DNA of 64,000 bases, from sequence record OZ346187.1; one strand, 5' to 3'. Origin of the DNA: a phage. Below are positions 55,474-64,000 of this stretch, piece after piece. The notes beneath the pieces were generated by a model. The model was not told where the DNA came from. It searched no databases and was given only the letters and a program-made list of their open reading frames with translations. Positions within the stretch are counted from its first letter, which is position 1, and the number at the start of each line of letters is the position of its first letter. The position numbers and the translations under genes are program-made.

Positions 55474-55824
55474 TCAGTAGATGTTTTGTTTAATCTCTAT
55501 TCCAAACTTCTTGAATGAGTCAGCAGCAAGCATAAATTTACGAGCTGCCGATGGATTAGAAGTATGCACGAAAATAATCACGTTGTCAATAAGTGGTGGC
55601 TTTCCGAATACAAGTTTCTCCTCTAGCGCAGAGAAGCAGTCGTACCCTTCAAGCACTTCACCTAGATCATTGTCAAAATACCACTCAGATACGCGTCTGT
55701 AGAGCTTTCTCTTATCATTAAGAAAATCCATAAACTCAGAAGAATTCTTTAGCCACAGAGCGTCTGGGAGTCCATAATCTGACGGATCTCTAAAATCATC
55801 AAGCCACACAATCCACTTCTTCAT
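55474..55824 (-). CDS. hypothetical protein
   Basis: ORF-track ORF. Confidence 0.45.
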   Translation of the reverse strand: MKKWIVWLDDFRDPSDYGLPDALWLKNSSEFMDFLNDKRKLYRRVSEWYFDNDLGEVLEGYDCFSALEEKLVFGKPPLIDNVIIFVHTSNPSAARKFMLAADSFKKFGIEIKQNIY

Positions 55825-56756
55825 TGCATATAGTCCTCGTTGTGGAAATAGTAGTCCAGTATCTCACGACGCTCCTGCTCTAATAAGCAATTCCACACAT
55901 CTTCTGTATAGTTGCTACGAATAAATTTTACCATACCGTAAAACTCTTCGTCAACACGTTTAAAGATATCATCATCCCAAATCTTCCAAGCTTTACCCCT
56001 CATTACTGCCTTCTGTGCCAGATAGTATGGAGACTTGATCTTCAGCTGCAGATCATAAGGGTAGTAAGGCTTACGAATCATATACCCTTCACCTCTTGTT
56101 TCTGCAGCTAATTCTTTTGCATAGCTGAACGGAATTTCACGCACAGTGTTAGGACGTTTTGCACCAAGGTATTTGGCAATCCCATCTAAAGCTGCTTCTG
56201 GTAGCATTATTCCAGAATCATTATATCTGCAACCTATCAAATATGCGCCATGGTCTTCTTGAACAATATGCGGATCTGAAGGGTGACAAATTTCAAACAT
56301 GAATGTCATGTTTTCATTGCCCATAACCTTCTTGATAAGATCTAAATTACCACATTGCTCTTGGATGGTTTCCTTTGCAAGGTTACAATATGGAGAATCA
56401 AGAGACCCGGTTGTTGAGAACAATAGGTCACCTTTATGAGATGATACCACACCAAGGAATCCGTTCTTTTTCTCTACCGCAGTCACAAGCTTATTGTCAG
56501 GCAGGTTGGTGGAGTTTTCTCCCAAGTTAAACACTTTTGTGAAGGGCCATGCCACAACATTTCCTTCATTACCTACAACAATGCCTCGGCACTCCAGTAA
56601 ACGAGGGGACAAATGCCATAAATTGTTGTAAAATACTTTTCTAGCATATTTATAGATCTTTAACCCGAGATCTGGGTAATACCTACTGGTTGCAAGACCT
56701 TTGTCAACTAGGTCGTCTGCATTAAAATACTTCATTATATGTTCCTCATTTGTCAT
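55821..56756 (-). CDS. putative RNA ligase (nucleotidyltransferase KxNG)
   Basis: VEKKNGFLG fits the ligase lysine motif K-x-(D/N)-G; a DNA ligase is encoded separately. Confidence 0.5.
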   Translation of the reverse strand: MTNEEHIMKYFNADDLVDKGLATSRYYPDLGLKIYKYARKVFYNNLWHLSPRLLECRGIVVGNEGNVVAWPFTKVFNLGENSTNLPDNKLVTAVEKKNGFLGVVSSHKGDLLFSTTGSLDSPYCNLAKETIQEQCGNLDLIKKVMGNENMTFMFEICHPSDPHIVQEDHGAYLIGCRYNDSGIMLPEAALDGIAKYLGAKRPNTVREIPFSYAKELAAETRGEGYMIRKPYYPYDLQLKIKSPYYLAQKAVMRGKAWKIWDDDIFKRVDEEFYGMVKFIRSNYTEDVWNCLLEQERREILDYYFHNEDYMQ

Positions 56757-56799
56757 TTTGTCAGTCTATCCTGCCACACAAATAACTTAGTGTCAACAC

Positions 56800-56828
56800 T
56801 TGAAATTAACAAAACAGTTAGGTATACT
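56800..56828 (+). promoter_or_regulatory. sigma70-like promoter TTGAAA-17-TATACT
   Basis: -35/-10 hexamers with 17-nt spacer ~29 nt upstream of the kinase ATG. Confidence 0.5.
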
Positions 56829-56856
56829 ACCGTTGAAATTAAAACGGAGGGTCGCT

Positions 56857-57267
56857 ATGTCTAAAATGCTATATATCGTGCGTGGTCTACCAGGGTCTGG
56901 CAAATCAACACTGGCAAATGCGCTATCTTTAGAGGGTCTGTATCCACATTTTGAGAACGACATGTTCTGGTATGACGATGACGGCAATTACAACTGGGAT
57001 GCAAGTAAAGTAACACTCGCAGCAAAATGGTGCAAAGATAACGTAGAAGATATGATGCGTATGGGATACGACCGTATCGTGGTAAGTAATACGTTTACAA
57101 AAGAAAAACATGTGCAGGAATATGTTGACATGGCAATCACTCATGGGTATAGTTATACCGTGATCGTGGTTGAAAACCGCCACGGCAATAAAAGCATTCA
57201 TGATGTTCCAGACAAGGTTGTGGATCGTATGGAACGCCAGCTTAAAAACTGCATTAAACTTAAATGA
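56857..57267 (+). CDS. P-loop polynucleotide kinase-like protein
   Basis: Walker A GLPGSGKST at residues 9-17; ORF-track start 56800 trimmed to ATG 56857 after GGAGGG RBS. Confidence 0.6.
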   Translation: MSKMLYIVRGLPGSGKSTLANALSLEGLYPHFENDMFWYDDDGNYNWDASKVTLAAKWCKDNVEDMMRMGYDRIVVSNTFTKEKHVQEYVDMAITHGYSYTVIVVENRHGNKSIHDVPDKVVDRMERQLKNCIKLK

Positions 57268-57274
57268 GGAATGT

Positions 57275-57829
57275 ATGAAATACTTTGTAACAAGCGACAC
57301 ACACTTTCTCCACCAGCGGGTCATGGAGTTTGATTCATGTCAAAAACACAGATCTCAGTATGATCACAATCTTGACAGTATGAATGCGGGAATCATCACC
57401 AAGTGGAACTCTGTTGTGTCACCTGCAGACACTGTGTTCCACTTGGGAGATATTGCATGCACTAATGATAAGAATATCAACAAATTGCTCCCAGATATTC
57501 TAAATATGTTGAACGGACATATTATTCTTGTTCGTGGCAACCATGACACAAGGACGACTGTCAAAATTATGAAAGAGTTCGGTCATGAGGTTGTAGATTA
57601 TTACGAGCTTCGCCACAACAAGAATTTGATCTGTATGAGCCATTACCAGTTTGCAAAGTGGAACAGAAAGCCTCACGGATCAGTCCAACTGTTCGGTCAT
57701 GCTCACGGAACCACACAACAGTTGTTTGGCAGGCAGCTTGATGTCGGTTGGGATGTGTGGGGGAGACTCTTACCATTAGAAGAGGCATACCGTATTGCAA
57801 TGAGTTTTGATATTGACAGCAGGGAGTAA
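57275..57829 (+). CDS. calcineurin-like metallophosphoesterase
   Basis: VTSDTHF, HLGDI, RGNHD, GHAHG motifs; ORF-track start 57170 trimmed to ATG 57275. Confidence 0.6.
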   Translation: MKYFVTSDTHFLHQRVMEFDSCQKHRSQYDHNLDSMNAGIITKWNSVVSPADTVFHLGDIACTNDKNINKLLPDILNMLNGHIILVRGNHDTRTTVKIMKEFGHEVVDYYELRHNKNLICMSHYQFAKWNRKPHGSVQLFGHAHGTTQQLFGRQLDVGWDVWGRLLPLEEAYRIAMSFDIDSRE

Positions 57830-60655: not shown

Positions 60656-60684
60656 TTGACAAACTTTGCTTAACAGTGTAATAT
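60656..60684 (+). promoter_or_regulatory. sigma70-like promoter TTGACA-17-TAATAT upstream of the tRNA cluster
   Basis: Consensus -35 and A/T -10 about 60 nt upstream of the first tRNA. Confidence 0.55.
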
Positions 60685-60742: not shown

Positions 60743-60817
60743 GCCCTGTTAGCTTAGTGGATAAAGCAGCGGCCTTCTAAGCCGTTGACACTGGTTCGAG
60801 TCCAGTACGGGGTGCCA
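60743..60817 (+). tRNA. tRNA-Arg (anticodon TCT), CCA encoded
   Basis: Cloverleaf: acceptor GCCCTGT/ACGGGGT, D-arm GCTT..AAGC, anticodon loop CTTCTAA, T-arm ACTGG-TTCGAGT-CCAGT. Confidence 0.8.
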
Positions 60818-60821
60818 AATT

Positions 60822-60908
60822 GGGGAGTTATCCCGTAGAGGTAGCGGTGTAGACTGTAAATCTATTGTCATTGCGACTCGGGTGGTTCGACTCCACCACT
60901 CCCCACCA
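60822..60908 (+). tRNA. tRNA-Tyr (anticodon GTA), long variable arm, CCA encoded
   Basis: Acceptor GGGGAGT/ACTCCCC, anticodon arm GTAGA-CTGTAAA-TCTAT (GACUGUAAAUC as in E. coli tRNA-Tyr), T-arm GGTGG-TTCGACT-CCACC. Confidence 0.8.
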
Positions 60909-61022
60909 AATTTATATTTTTAGATGCATAAATAATACAGATAATGGCATTGATATTTATCGTCGTTTATACTAGTCACTAACTGCTCGAAAATCAGTGT
61001 CATTATCAGTATAATTTATAAA

Positions 61023-61113
61023 GGAGGGTAGGGAGCAATGGTGCTCAAGCGGTCTTGAAAACCGTCCCGTTGAGGATGACTCGATGATGGTTCGATTCCA
61101 TTACTCTCCGCCA
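61023..61113 (+). tRNA. tRNA-Ser (anticodon TGA), type II, CCA encoded
   Basis: Acceptor GGAGGGT/ACTCTCC, anticodon arm GCGGT-CTTGAAA-ACCGT, long variable arm, T-arm GATGG-TTCGATT-CCATT. Confidence 0.75.
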
Positions 61114-61211
61114 CATTGTTGACCTTGTAATTAAGCGAAAGCCGGAAGCAGAACCGGATTATCAAATGTTACAGTCGTCATCGCCGACTAGCAACATGGT
61201 CAACATACTGA

Positions 61212-61310
61212 GCTAGGTAAGCCCTTTGGCAAGGGCGAGGATTTTTAATCCTGAAAATAGACGAGGTAGTCGTTGAATACATAGGTGGTTCGATTCCATC
61301 ACCTAGCACC
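61212..61310 (+). tRNA. atypical tRNA-like gene (possible tRNA-Lys TTT with ~30-nt extra arm) or tRNA pseudogene
   Basis: Perfect acceptor GCTAGGT/ACCTAGC, D-arm GCCC-TTTGGCAA-GGGC, T-arm GGTGG-TTCGATT-CCATC, but 47 nt between D and T arms; loop TTTTTAA on a 4-bp stem. Confidence 0.4.
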
Positions 61311-61315
61311 TTTTT

Positions 61316-61391
61316 GCTGATGTAGCACAATCGGTAGTGCAATTGATTTGTAATCAATAGGTTGTAGGTTCAAGTCCTGCCATCAGCACCA
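61316..61391 (+). tRNA. tRNA-Thr (anticodon TGT), CCA encoded
   Basis: Acceptor GCTGATG/CATCAGC, D-arm GCAC..GTGC, anticodon arm ATTGA-TTTGTAA-TCAAT, T-arm GTAGG-TTCAAGT-CCTGC. Confidence 0.8.
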
Positions 61392-61392
61392 A

Positions 61393-61467
61393 GGCCCTGT
61401 AGCTGGAAGGTTCAAGCAAGCGACTCATAATCGCCAGACGGTGGTTCAATTCCACCCAGGGCCACCA
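61393..61467 (+). tRNA. tRNA-Met or Ile2 (anticodon CAT), elongator-type, CCA encoded
   Basis: Acceptor GGCCCTG/CAGGGCC with G1-C72 pair, anticodon loop CTCATAA, T-arm GGTGG-TTCAATT-CCACC. Confidence 0.75.
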
Positions 61468-61478
61468 AATAGTAAATA

Positions 61479-61555
61479 CTCCGCGTAGCTCAGCTTGGTA
61501 GAGCGCCTGATTTGGGATCAGGAGGTCGAGTGTTCGAATCACTCCGTGGAGACCA
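61479..61555 (+). tRNA. tRNA-Pro (anticodon TGG), CCA encoded
   Basis: Acceptor CTCCGCG/CGTGGAG, D-arm GCTC-AGCTTGGTA-GAGC, anticodon arm CCTGA-TTTGGGA-TCAGG, T-arm GAGTG-TTCGAAT-CACTC. Confidence 0.8.
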
Positions 61556-62375: not shown

Positions 62376-62659
62376 GAGTTGCTACACTGTTTATTGTGTG
62401 CTTGTTATTATGTGGGTGTGCAACCAGCGTTGAGAGAGAATACAAGATTGACCCTCCTGATGTAGGAAGGTTGATTGTTAAACCCCCGGAAGGTGCCATG
62501 AAACCACCTGCTAAAGCTATGCCTTTGAAGAAAGGTGCGCCAGATGCAGTGAATTCTGGCATTATGAGGGATAATAATCTGTCTTGTAGCAATGATAGAG
62601 CTAAATTGATCATTTTGCAAGACTATATTAGAACACTTTTTCCAAAGGAGAGAGGTTAA
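62372..62659 (+). CDS. putative o-spanin (Rz1-like lipoprotein)
   Basis: Lipobox-type signal MRVATLFIVCLLLCGCAT; Pro-rich; 4-nt overlap with the i-spanin candidate. Confidence 0.5.
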   Translation: MRVATLFIVCLLLCGCATSVEREYKIDPPDVGRLIVKPPEGAMKPPAKAMPLKKGAPDAVNSGIMRDNNLSCSNDRAKLIILQDYIRTLFPKERG

Positions 62660-63084
62660 TGTCTAAGATTTACGGACCGTGTTCTGAAAAGCAGAAGATG
62701 ATCCTAGAAAACGATGCAGATATTTTGGTAATCGGCGGTGCCGCAGGGTCTGGCAAGTCGTTCCTCTTGCAATTGATGCCACTTAAAATTATTGATGACC
62801 CCCACAGCTCTGTGGTTATGTTCCGAAGAACAACCCCACAGTTGGAAGGTGAGGGTGGATTATGGCCTAAAGCAGTAGCTATTTATAGTGATCTGCCTGA
62901 AAACATTAAGCCAAAGTTTAGAGAGAAGGATCATAAGTTCATTTTTCCACGGTTTGATCCGAACACTGGCAAGTGGGATAGAAGCAAAAAGGGAGCTGTT
63001 GTAAAATACTGCCACATGGAGTATGTACAAGATAAGCTTAACCATCAGGGGCTTGAGTACACCATGGTTTGCTTCGATGAGGGT
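62659..63084 (+). CDS. terL: terminase large subunit, exon 1 (N-terminal ATPase; interrupted by intron)
   Basis: Walker A VIGGAAGSGKS; Walker B MVCFDEG immediately before the stop at the intron start. Confidence 0.7.
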
Positions 63085-63134
63085 TAATTTGTAGCTCTCG
63101 TAAAACCTCCCTAATTGCGGGGAAATCTTTATTA

Positions 63135-63163
63135 TTGACACCACCAACCTGTCATGGTAACAT
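63135..63163 (+). promoter_or_regulatory. promoter-like TTGACA-17-TAACAT inside the terL intron, upstream of the endonuclease ORF
   Basis: Consensus -35 and plausible -10; overlaps palindrome TGTCATGGTAACATGACA. Confidence 0.35.
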
Positions 63164-63302
63164 GACAGAGGCTTCGAAGAGAGATCGAAGGTATGGTAAC
63201 AGTGTGTTAATTTAGATAATCCGCAGCGAAGCATCCGAGAGGATGAACGTTCAACGACTAGTCGAAAGACGTAGAATCAAGCGATTCGAAACGGGAGGGT
63301 GA

Positions 63303-63893
63303 ATGTGTAATACTAAGAAATGTATGGATTGCCAAAGAGTTCTACCTATTGATGATTTCTTTTTATCATCTAAGAGCAAGGATGGATACTCAGGTACATG
63401 CAAGGAATGCTATATGTACTACAGGAAGGGTGGATCTCGTAAAAACAAAAATATGGTTAAGAGAGATGATGCAGCATTGTTTATTCAAGACTTGCTGAAG
63501 AAAGGTGAACTTTTTGAATGCAAATCTTGTCATGAAAGTATGCTCGCTGATAGTTTTTACACAAAACGTGACTATGGTAAAGTATATCTGGTTACGAACA
63601 GGTGTAAGATGTGTGAAAAGTTTTATCAGATTGAGAAGAAATTTAACATAACAAAAGATGAATACTATCGTCTACTCTCAGATCAAGATCATAAGTGTGC
63701 CATTTGTAGAATATCCCTTGATGAGTATAGGACGCAAGGGTATAGAGATTTCTTTTGTGTTGATCATGACCATAAAACTGGTGCTGTAAGAGGGTTGCTT
63801 TGTGATAAATGCAACAGAGCTTTAGGTTTCTTCCAAGAGGATGAGGAAACTATTCTTAGAGCGGCAGAGTATTTACACATTCATAAGATATAG
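63303..63893 (+). CDS. endonuclease VII-family (HNH-like) homing endonuclease, intron-encoded
   Basis: FCVDHDHKTGAVRGLLCDKCNRALG matches the endonuclease VII core; several CxxC pairs; inside the terL intron. Confidence 0.7.
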   Translation: MCNTKKCMDCQRVLPIDDFFLSSKSKDGYSGTCKECYMYYRKGGSRKNKNMVKRDDAALFIQDLLKKGELFECKSCHESMLADSFYTKRDYGKVYLVTNRCKMCEKFYQIEKKFNITKDEYYRLLSDQDHKCAICRISLDEYRTQGYRDFFCVDHDHKTGAVRGLLCDKCNRALGFFQEDEETILRAAEYLHIHKI

Positions 63894-64000
63894 TCTGGTC
63901 TGCATGGAGACATGCAGCTGCCTGAAAATGGCGGGGCAAGACTAGCGACCTTGCCCGAACATAAACGACACAATTCGAATGGGAGCAGATAGACTACCTG

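Follow-up and report, generated by a model that had tools for sequence, protein, structure and literature searches.

Phage-encoded lysine transfer RNA (tRNA-Lys) has been found to neutralize the defence systems PARIS and PrrC, thereby rescuing infection (PMC11464382, PMC11555353), viral tRNAs have been discussed as possible competitive inhibitors of AriB (PMC12409363), and changes within the anticodon loop occur in phage tRNAs (PMC10264068). Charging and decoding in E. coli have been demonstrated for allo-tRNAs and selC*-type tRNAs; some of these are located in tRNA clusters of phages, and roles as suppressors and/or regulatory RNAs have been considered for them (PMC5389517). The tRNA cluster of phage T4 encodes two stable small RNAs, RNAC (species 1) and RNAD (species 2), of unknown function (PMC3014915). 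Here we describe an atypical tRNA-like gene (hereafter the element) that is located inside a tRNA cluster in 64,000 nucleotides (nt) of phage DNA (record OZ346187.1; the window). The 901 bases around the element are 100% identical with those of Escherichia phage rV5 (NC_011041, Vequintavirus) and of many close relatives, and this copy is referred to as the rV5 element. It is well supported that the rV5 element is a member of a discrete, previously undescribed RNA family, present once per genome in the rV5-like (Vequintavirinae) and phi92-like phages of Enterobacterales, and we consider it nearly certain that the element is a real, selected, L-shaped tRNA-like RNA of such a family.

The fold of the rV5 element is 3.7 standard deviations more stable than those of shuffled sequences, none of 200 shuffles being equal to it (for the coordinates of all features see Table 1). 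Direct reading confirmed most of the original prediction, including a perfect 7-base-pair (bp) acceptor stem (GCTAGGT with ACCTAGC), a T arm (GGTGG-TTCGATT-CCATC), a loop TTTTTAA on the 4-bp stem AGGA/TCCT, a second hairpin GACGA-GGTAG-TCGTT, and an interval between the D and T arms of exactly 47 nt (61237-61283). The element is located inside the tRNA cluster, with tRNA-Ser(UGA) on the 5' side and tRNA-Thr(UGU) on the 3' side. The D arm had been described as canonical; its stem GCCC/GGGC is indeed present, but A8 and U14 stand where tRNAs normally carry U8 and A14. With U14:A21 and U15:A20 added, the stem could be extended to 6 bp and the loop reduced to 4 nt, the arrangement of tRNA-Sec. The CCA end that had been taken as encoded is incomplete, because the discriminator A61308 is followed by C61309, C61310 and T61311, leaving only CC; all six neighbouring tRNA genes encode the full CCA, and the element is the sole gene of the cluster without it. 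The alternative hairpin (A)GGATT-TTT-AATCC(T), noticed before, is present and represents the minimum-free-energy form. As the fold of the family, however, this hairpin of 6 bp with a 3-nt loop was rejected, since it can be formed in rV5 only and is impossible in the relatives, so that the reading of 4 bp with a 7-nt loop is the one comparable throughout the family. Both a non-canonical tRNA and a tRNA with an extra arm, as proposed originally, are apt descriptions of this RNA, which is L-shaped and tRNA-like and has an additional hairpin; the standard predictors give no canonical cloverleaf for it (ARAGORN reports 'tRNA-???', and the Rfam tRNA model needs an insertion).

In order to examine selection on this structure, we collected a total of 34 distinct family sequences, of which 31 were included in alignment A2. 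The pairing test covered 20 pairs, that is, the acceptor, D and T stems, three pairs of the anticodon stem and the tertiary pair between the D and T loops. All 620 cells of this test (20 pairs in 31 sequences) were standard pairs, half of the pairs (10 of 20) showed compensatory changes on both sides, and the covariation score was equalled by none of 500 shuffles, while controls with slid pairing gave only 34-47% paired cells. Compensatory double changes were found in four pairs of the acceptor stem (for example, pair 3:70 is CG in 15 sequences, AU in 8 and UA in 8), in three of the four pairs of the D stem, and in one pair of the T stem (UA 25, CG 6). At the elbow pair 19:56, 22-24 sequences have G:C, 9-10 have U:A and none has a mismatch, and such a clean switch between G19:C56 and U19:A56 is hard to explain unless the tRNA elbow forms. 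Among all 34 sequences, the first pair of the anticodon-like stem is AU in 23, GC in 9 and GU in 2, and the fourth, at a position misaligned by MAFFT, is AU in 8, UA in 13 and CG in 13. A compensatory change from A:U to G:C was also observed in the extra hairpin between rV5 and Av-05. Pairs of the G-U type occur on the plus strand only (for example, GU at 50:64 in 15 sequences), indicating that the strand of the tRNAs is the functional strand. U14:A21 and U15:A20 are predicted to be paired by RNAalifold; both are invariant, and thus provide no covariation for or against the 6-bp D stem.

The sequence itself is conserved as well. Two Vequintavirus contigs that have diverged from rV5 carry an element of 96-98% identity, compared with 80-86% for the flanking spacers and about 90% for tRNA-Ser. 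A covariance model built from alignment A2 (designated R1) gave 79.6-115 bits for the family members, including L059, L063, L064 and L065 that were absent from the training set, and 28 bits or less for ordinary tRNAs (26 bits for one phage tRNA-Lys). The maintenance of the acceptor, D and T helices and of the elbow pair by compensatory evolution implies folding into the L-shape and recognition by tRNA-processing enzymes; as far as the conserved pairs can tell, the RNA must adopt this fold and must be recognized by RNase P, trimmed at its 3' end and supplied with CCA. The possibility that the locus is a coding sequence, as annotated in several records by small 'hypothetical proteins', was rejected after inspection of the substitutions, which are RNA-like, with compensatory pairs and with G-U on one strand only.

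The family shares with canonical tRNAs the 7-bp acceptor stem and the 5-bp T stem, both paired to 100% in the 31 aligned sequences, the T loop TPsiCRA and the G18G19/Psi55C56 elbow. In place of the U8/A14 reverse-Hoogsteen pair of tRNAs, A8 and U14 are found in all 34 members (positions 8-9 are AA in 20 and AG in 14). Other constant residues are U15, A20-A21 and a G on either side of the anticodon-like stem, of which the first three pairs are also constant, (A/G)GG with CC(U/C). The anticodon-like arm measures 15-16 nt and never reaches the 17 nt of the 5-bp stem and 7-nt loop of tRNAs. The variable region, 31 nt in rV5 and 31-40 nt across the family, consists of a 5' linker with the consensus GAAAA(U/A/C), an extra hairpin present in every member with different length and sequence, and a 3' linker that ends with AAUACAUA immediately 5' of the T stem [note that GAAAA was required by the retrieval pattern, but its invariance was also seen in A2, gathered by a different pattern]. 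The motif ATACATA is carried by 32 of the 34 sequences, and the phi92-like copies carry AAAUACGAAA in its place. Inspection by eye for a k-turn or for pairing of one A-rich linker with the other revealed AUGU/ACAU in some clades only, and as this is not conserved, the idea was discarded. The discriminator U plus an encoded CCA is found in 24 of the 34 sequences.

In contrast to this constant frame, the anticodon-like loop differs between clades and can be classified into three types. Type A is UUUUUAA in Vequintavirus and UUUAUAA in Avunavirus (Av-05). Type B, of Seunavirus and Mydovirus, is AGGU(C)-CAUCCA-(G)ACCU, which can be read as 5 bp with 6 nt or as 4 bp with 8 nt, with the variants CAGCCA, CCUCCA, CCGCCA and CUUCCA. 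Type C, GGGC-[C/U]AUCAAA-GCCC, is shared by Henunavirus, the phi92-like phages and three metagenomic clades. The triplet at the anticodon position is thus not conserved among orthologues, being UUU in rV5 and UAU in Av-05, while Seunavirus and Mydovirus have N-[U/G]CC and the remaining members A33-UCA. Position 33 in types B and C is A, C or U, and the members of UCA type all carry A33. Three type B copies (L034, L040 and K54rec1) are identical over 109 nt except for loop positions 33 and 34, and the sole difference between the anticodon-like arms of rV5 and Av-05 is in the middle of the triplet. The change is therefore concentrated at the site where a tRNA carries U33 and the anticodon.

Homologues were identified in about 245 phage genomes, belonging to Vequintavirus, Avunavirus, Seunavirus, Mydovirus, Henunavirus and the phi92-like phages, with one copy per locus as detected by R1. 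BLAST with the rV5 copy identified 129 phage records, BLAST with the diverged copy of Salmonella phage KE22 identified 189 records (Vequintavirus, Avunavirus, Seunavirus, Mydovirus and Henunavirus), and a third, more diverged form was found in 56 records of phi92-like phages (Justusliebigvirus). In addition, motif scans detected further copies on IMG/VR and metagenome contigs, including some clades without an isolate. A host origin was considered and rejected: no match was found in 5,426 complete E. coli genomes, nor in the 185,579 bacterial genomes of GTDB (one per species), the latter searched by the exact 19-base motif only. The tRNA set of rV5 is much reduced, to 7 genes compared with 17-24 in its relatives, and the element is kept. 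Phage V18 (L007:576-760) has lost by deletion tRNA-Ser together with the 3' half of tRNA-Tyr and two-thirds of the element from its 5' side, and what is left of tRNA-Tyr and of the element is fused into a chimeric, non-pairing sequence adjoining tRNA-Thr. Two observations concern the records themselves. A total of 18 'Campylobacter phage' records (MG0656xx, host C. jejuni) are 99-100% identical to rV5 in this region, and their host labels look doubtful; Salmonella phage R7 (PQ002170) is filed under Demerecviridae, yet its locus is Seunavirus-like.

The public annotation of this locus is inconsistent. ARAGORN reported the rV5 element as 'tRNA-???' with the 4-base anticodon 'atcc', and called the element in none of the relatives checked. 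The Rfam tRNA model (RF00005) gave 35.5 bits for the rV5 element against the gathering threshold of 29, at the expense of a 26-nt insertion in the variable region and the deletion of one pair of the anticodon stem (leaving a 4-bp stem). This threshold was reached in rV5 only; for the relatives, which fell short, tRNA-Sec (RF01852) was the best match with 26-40 bits, under its gathering threshold of 47, while for 4MG, Ro1, PD06 and L048 there was no Rfam match. Rfam holds no model for the family, and our literature searches found no published description of this RNA. The rV5 reference record has no feature at the element, tRNAscan-based annotations give tRNA-Lys, the BASEL phage records tRNA-Lys (AAA), the Hena1 record tRNA-sup(tca), and other GenBank labels include tRNA-Stop(tta) (JLBYU08), tRNA-OTHER (Asp|Gly), tRNA-???(atcc) and hypothetical protein. 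The registers 'atcc' and 'tta' were rejected, because the folds they require (such as AUUUU/AAAAU) are not conserved and AUCC in rV5 forms the 3' strand of the covarying stem. As to other RNA classes, no transfer-messenger RNA was detected by ARAGORN in the window, the element with 97 nt being too short, and YrlA (RF02553) gave no significant match over the element, its sole weak match (25 bits) covering two neighbouring tRNAs.

As to the function, we tentatively favor the interpretation that the element is a tRNA mimic or a specialized tRNA taking part in the conflict between phage and host over tRNAs and tRNA-targeting defences. We infer that it is not an ordinary elongator tRNA, since the anticodon arm is 1-2 nt short, U33 is missing from most relatives, the triplet varies from clade to clade, and one clade carries a loop of 6-8 nt. 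From the invariance of their sequences, the L-shaped body and the two A-rich single-stranded linkers resemble a surface at which a conserved partner would bind. The tRNA-like body would give access to tRNA-binding proteins, and the fast-evolving anticodon-like loop would determine which tRNA is imitated. In rV5, UUUUUAA together with A73 would represent a tRNA-Lys(UUU) loop, and it is this tRNA that PrrC, RloC and PARIS attack; rV5 has no other tRNA-Lys gene. The element could compete for such nucleases or serve them as a decoy, or it could replace Lys-tRNA in a form that resists cleavage. The decoy option, already raised in the original prediction, is compatible with an anticodon-like loop that is not conserved and is locally hypervariable. 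The window also encodes a tRNA healing-and-sealing gene set (55821-57829), located 3.4-5.4 kb upstream of the tRNA cluster and comprising an Rnl1-type RNA ligase beside a kinase and a phosphoesterase (Table 1); in T4, the kinase-phosphatase and Rnl1 repair the tRNA-Lys cut by PrrC.

Several points weigh against this interpretation. The tie to defence systems, through gene neighbourhood and loop resemblance, is circumstantial, and to our knowledge the loops of the relatives (A33-UCA, N-[U/G]CC and UAU) match no known target of anticodon nucleases. The combinations of discriminator and triplet fit the identity sets of E. coli synthetases, U73 with xCC for Gly, U73 with xCA being Cys-like, and A73 with UUU for Lys; this co-variation hints that charging, and hence decoding, may matter. 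Both the discriminator and the 3' tail drift in the lineages of rV5 and Av-05 (A-CCU, A-CAU, U-ACA and C-ACA), as does the 3' tail in phi92-like lineages, and this drift could represent a partial relaxation. Furthermore, V18 without the element is still a viable isolate, indicating that the element is not essential in the laboratory.

A more specific form of the mimic interpretation, speculative and unlikely as it stands, is a new class of phage tRNA mimic, composed of the conserved L-body, proprietary A-rich linkers and a swappable loop that would serve as bait against host immune nucleases or toxins, of Lys type in rV5 and of other types in other genera. Alternatively, such an RNA might be a substrate that is re-sealed or remodelled by the phage Rnl1 ligase, kinase and phosphoesterase.

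Among the rival explanations, a true decoding tRNA, although doubtful, survives best. The rV5 element would then be a class-II-like tRNA-Lys(UUU), charged by lysyl-tRNA synthetase (LysRS) and reading AAA and AAG on the ribosome as a codon supplement, in line with the other tRNAs of the cluster for codons ending in A, with other anticodons on the same scaffold in the relatives. The rV5 loop is a canonical 7-nt loop with U33 and A37, and that of E. coli tRNA-Lys is CUUUUAA; the combination of UUU in such a loop with A73 (A61308), observed in the Vequintavirus lineage only, represents the main identity elements of LysRS. ARAGORN detected no other tRNA-Lys gene in rV5, and the other rV5 tRNAs read AGA, UCA, ACA, AUA and CCA, a pattern that AAA suits. 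The tRNAscan-based labels and the Rfam score above threshold point in the same direction, a G26-G42 pair, if formed, would give an anticodon helix of five layers, and the 7/5 acceptor/T helix is the geometry used by EF-Tu (PMC5389517). This explanation is opposed by the divergence of the triplet among orthologues (UUU, UAU, NCC and UCA) and by the departures from tRNA architecture, that is, A8/U14, the 15-16-nt anticodon arm, the 31-40-nt variable region with invariant A-rich linkers and the missing U33 in most members. In comparison with E. coli tRNA-Lys and six phage tRNA-Lys genes, the element lacks the tRNA-Lys architecture (class I, U8/A14, a 5-bp anticodon stem and CCA), the encoded CCA being absent from this gene alone within the cluster. 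Moreover, relatives with 15-24 tRNA genes carry canonical tRNA-Lys(UUU) and tRNA-Gly(UCC) alongside the element, and the retention of the element next to a canonical tRNA-Lys(UUU) argues that the conserved function of the family is not Lys decoding; tRNA-Lys is also abundant in E. coli.

Rather unlikely is a non-decoding structured RNA unrelated to tRNA-targeting defence, which would work as a protein sponge or cofactor through its linkers, or as an element for processing or stability of the operon. The most invariant of the unusual features are indeed the linkers GAAAA(U/A) and AAUACAUA, not the loop, and a T run 3' of the rV5 element was terminator-like in our scan. A precedent is given by the T4 tRNA cluster, which also contains stable small RNAs of unknown role, rnaC carrying a T-arm-like hairpin (PMC3014915). 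The R1 search, however, revealed no homology to T4 rnaC or rnaD (no match at E <= 1). A processing signal needs no elbow pair, D arm, U73-CCA (24 of 34) or covarying anticodon-like stem, and the focusing of change on loop positions 33-36 suggests a specificity element rather than a passive feature.

A recoding tRNA, whether a suppressor of ochre (anticodon UUA) or opal (anticodon UCA) codons or a tRNA for quadruplets or frameshifting, is very improbable. The labels tRNA-Stop(tta) in JLBYU08 and tRNA-sup(tca) in Hena1 and the 4-base anticodon of ARAGORN would agree with it, and the 8-nt loop of type B, CC-N-[U/G]CC-AG, resembles those of sufD-type frameshift suppressors. The type C loop CAUCAAA is like CUUCAAA of tRNA-Sec and, together with U73, like selC*-type tRNA-Cys(UCA) opal suppressors (PMC5389517). 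As noted above, however, the 'tta' and 'atcc' registers of rV5 need folds that are not conserved, and A33 is present in all members of UCA type. The codon TGA ends 40% of long open reading frames (ORFs) in Hena1 (UCA type) and 37% in rV5, indicating no avoidance, and a tblastn comparison of 50 kb of Hena1 with rV5 found no in-frame TGA in real genes, a weak test covering the early region only. With respect to frameshifting, the split terminase gene of rV5 has gaps of more than 200 nt and non-overlapping frames, pointing to introns. Finally, a decaying tRNA pseudogene without function, such as a former class II tRNA with insertions, is hardly credible and is already contradicted: the degraded 3' CCA in the rV5 and Av-05 lineages, the V18 deletion and the disagreement of predictors would suit decay, but they are opposed by compensatory changes in every helix and in the tertiary pair, seen in six or more genera and in several clades known from metagenomes, by conservation on a par with bona fide tRNAs while the adjoining spacers diverge, and by the retention of the element in the reduced tRNA set of rV5.

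Table 1. Features of the rV5 element and its surroundings (window positions, except for the last line)
Feature	Position	Strand	Remarks
Whole tRNA-like RNA, G1 to discriminator A, 97 nt	61212..61308	+	Direct reading, ARAGORN and Rfam; R1 105.6 bits over 61212-61311
Acceptor stem, 5' strand GCTAGGT	61212..61218	+	7/7 pairs kept in 31/31 sequences
Linker A8-A9	61219..61220	+	A8 in every family member; tRNAs normally U8
D arm GCCC(UU)-UGGC-(AA)GGGC	61221..61236	+	4-bp stem GCCC 61221-61224 / GGGC 61233-61236; covariation in stem
G19 equivalent, D loop	61229	+	Tertiary elbow pair with C56 (61291)
Anticodon-like arm, 15 nt not 17	61237..61253	+	G26, stem AGGA 61238-61241, stem UCCU 61249-61252, then G
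Anticodon-like loop UUUUUAA	61242..61248	+	UUU triplet 61244-61246
5' A-rich linker GAAAAUA	61253..61259	+	GAAAA in every retrieved member
Extra (variable-region) hairpin GACGA-GGUAG-UCGUU	61260..61274	+	Shortest in the family
3' linker GAAUACAUA	61275..61283	+	AAUACAUA nearly invariant between genera
T arm GGUGG-UUCGAUU-CCAUC	61284..61300	+	5/5 pairs kept; C61291 = C56
Acceptor stem, 3' strand ACCUAGC	61301..61307	+	Pairs with 61212-61218
tRNA cluster enclosing the element	60743..61555	+	Arg(UCU), Tyr(GUA), Ser(UGA), element, Thr(UGU), Met/Ile(CAU), Pro(UGG)
Sigma-70-like promoter of the tRNA operon	60656..60684	+	Named P(tRNA) in the rV5 RefSeq record
Second promoter-like site	60987..61015	+	Just 5' of tRNA-Ser; consensus match only
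T4 Rnl1-type RNA ligase	55821-56756	-	PF09511 RNA_lig_T4_1, 55 bits
P-loop kinase (AAA_33)	56800-57267	+	Domain match beside the ligase
Metallophosphoesterase	57170-57829	+	Domain match beside the ligase
Odd upstream tRNA genes	L006:1119-1194; L032:5383-5457 (-); L015:332-405; L025:928-997 (-)		Relatives' arrays

The element is located within the tRNA operon, on the same strand as the tRNAs. Besides the promoter named P(tRNA), the second promoter-like site just upstream of tRNA-Ser could, to judge from its match to the consensus, also transcribe the element. The 98-nt spacer between tRNA-Ser and the element (61114-61211) includes CCGGAAGCAGAACCGG, a GC-rich hairpin, as well as CCGACTAGCA, which is kept in the diverged Vequintavirus contigs, while the final 20 nt or so 5' of the element vary freely. 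Most records annotate the tRNA with CAU anticodon at 61393-61467 as tRNA-Met, whereas the BASEL records give tRNA-Ile for AUA, which implies lysidine. Stretches of the rV5 tRNA cluster are 80-95% identical to those of hundreds of T4-like (Tequatrovirus) genomes (738 records matched), the genes likely common to both clusters being Arg(UCU), Ser(UGA), Thr(UGU), Ile(CAU) and Pro(UGG); the similarity suggests that unrelated phage families either inherited tRNA genes from a common ancestor or exchanged them. Hena1 encodes a CCA-adding enzyme. At the end of the window (62659-64000), the gene for the terminase large subunit is split, an ORF at 62659-63087 being followed after a gap of more than 200 nt by the next open frame from 63303, and in the RefSeq record of rV5 this gene consists of three joined pieces; the lack of overlap between the frames indicates introns and not frameshifting.

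In Seunavirus and Mydovirus, the tRNA gene directly 5' of the element, with its CCA 2 nt away, is also non-canonical (Table 1). The loops of these odd upstream genes are ACGAUUC (with C33 and U37), the 6-nt ACGAUA (ARAGORN 'tRNA-??? (ga)') and UGCGCAA (with G33), and the same array carries another gene reported as tRNA-???(gt). Taken together, the Seunavirus and Mydovirus arrays contain several tRNA-like genes without U33. In Raoultella phage Ro1 (L022:8-400), a gene for an HNH homing endonuclease is located between tRNA-Thr and the element, replacing the odd upstream tRNA of its relatives.

The rV5-like, PVP-SE1-like and phi92-like phages are common in phage therapy and in defence screens (such as the BASEL collection), and the current annotation of this locus, which ranges from nothing through four different tRNAs to a protein, is unreliable. 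A conserved family with its own architecture offers a concrete candidate for the role of non-canonical RNAs in tRNA clusters, among which T4 RNAC and RNAD have been unexplained for decades. If the element is a mimic or decoy, it would represent an RNA-only route of counter-defence against tRNA-targeting immunity, and the fastest change at the anticodon-like positions would be explained; as a bait, it would be an RNA-based anti-defence element concealed among tRNA genes. If it decodes, a tRNA of a bacterial system that carries A8/U14 and has only 4 bp in its anticodon stem but 31 nt in its variable region would be a limit case, informative for the limits of tRNA design and for the engineering of orthogonal tRNAs.

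In comparison with known systems, the element is like T4 RNAC in that both are small RNAs encoded within a phage tRNA cluster, with a tRNA-like T arm and a terminal stem, but RNAC is 139 nt long and has neither a D arm nor an anticodon-like arm in tRNA register. Bacterial Y RNAs (YrlA) also carry a tRNA-like acceptor/T/D module, serving there a non-decoding role, and some of them are phage-encoded; the element differs from YrlA in lacking a Ro-binding helix, nor was an rsr gene noted. Like class II tRNAs and tRNA-Sec, the element is an L-shaped cloverleaf in which an extra hairpin separates the anticodon arm from the T arm. Likeness to tRNA-Sec extends to the possible 6-bp D stem with a 4-nt loop (UGGC), A at position 8, the alignment of the relatives' D arm by the Rfam tRNA-Sec model, and the xUCAAA loop in most relatives. 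In contrast to tRNA-Sec, the acceptor/T helix is 7/5 and not 8/5 (13 bp), so that cmscan must mis-pair the ends, the discriminator is U or A instead of G, A33 replaces U33, the anticodon arm is 1-2 nt short while that of tRNA-Sec is longer, and single-stranded A-rich linkers of 7-10 nt flank the extra hairpin. The rV5 copy carries UUU with A73, its relatives UCA but with U73, and the best score of 40 bits is below the threshold of 47.

Allo-tRNAs and selC*-type tRNAs likewise have a non-canonical cloverleaf, a long variable arm and many anticodons on one scaffold (PMC5389517), and U73 plus UCA is the combination of selC* tRNA-Cys. Compared by architecture, the element is strictly 7/5, whereas allo-tRNAs are defined by 8/4 or 9/3 (PMC5389517). 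The defence-evading phage tRNAs, namely, T5 tRNA-Lys against PARIS, phage tRNA-Lys against PrrC and T5 tRNA-Tyr against retron-Eco7, resemble the element in their location in the tRNA cluster of a lytic phage, in the Lys-type loop (rV5) and in the focusing of changes on the anticodon arm. These are canonical 76-nt tRNAs with few point changes and are known decoders (PMC11464382, PMC12409363, PMC11555353, PMC10264068), while the element deviates in its architecture from tRNAs and has no conserved anticodon. The closest systems are, altogether, tRNA-Sec and class II tRNAs, allo-tRNAs, T4 RNAC and the defence-evading phage tRNAs, and the element fails the defining features of each.

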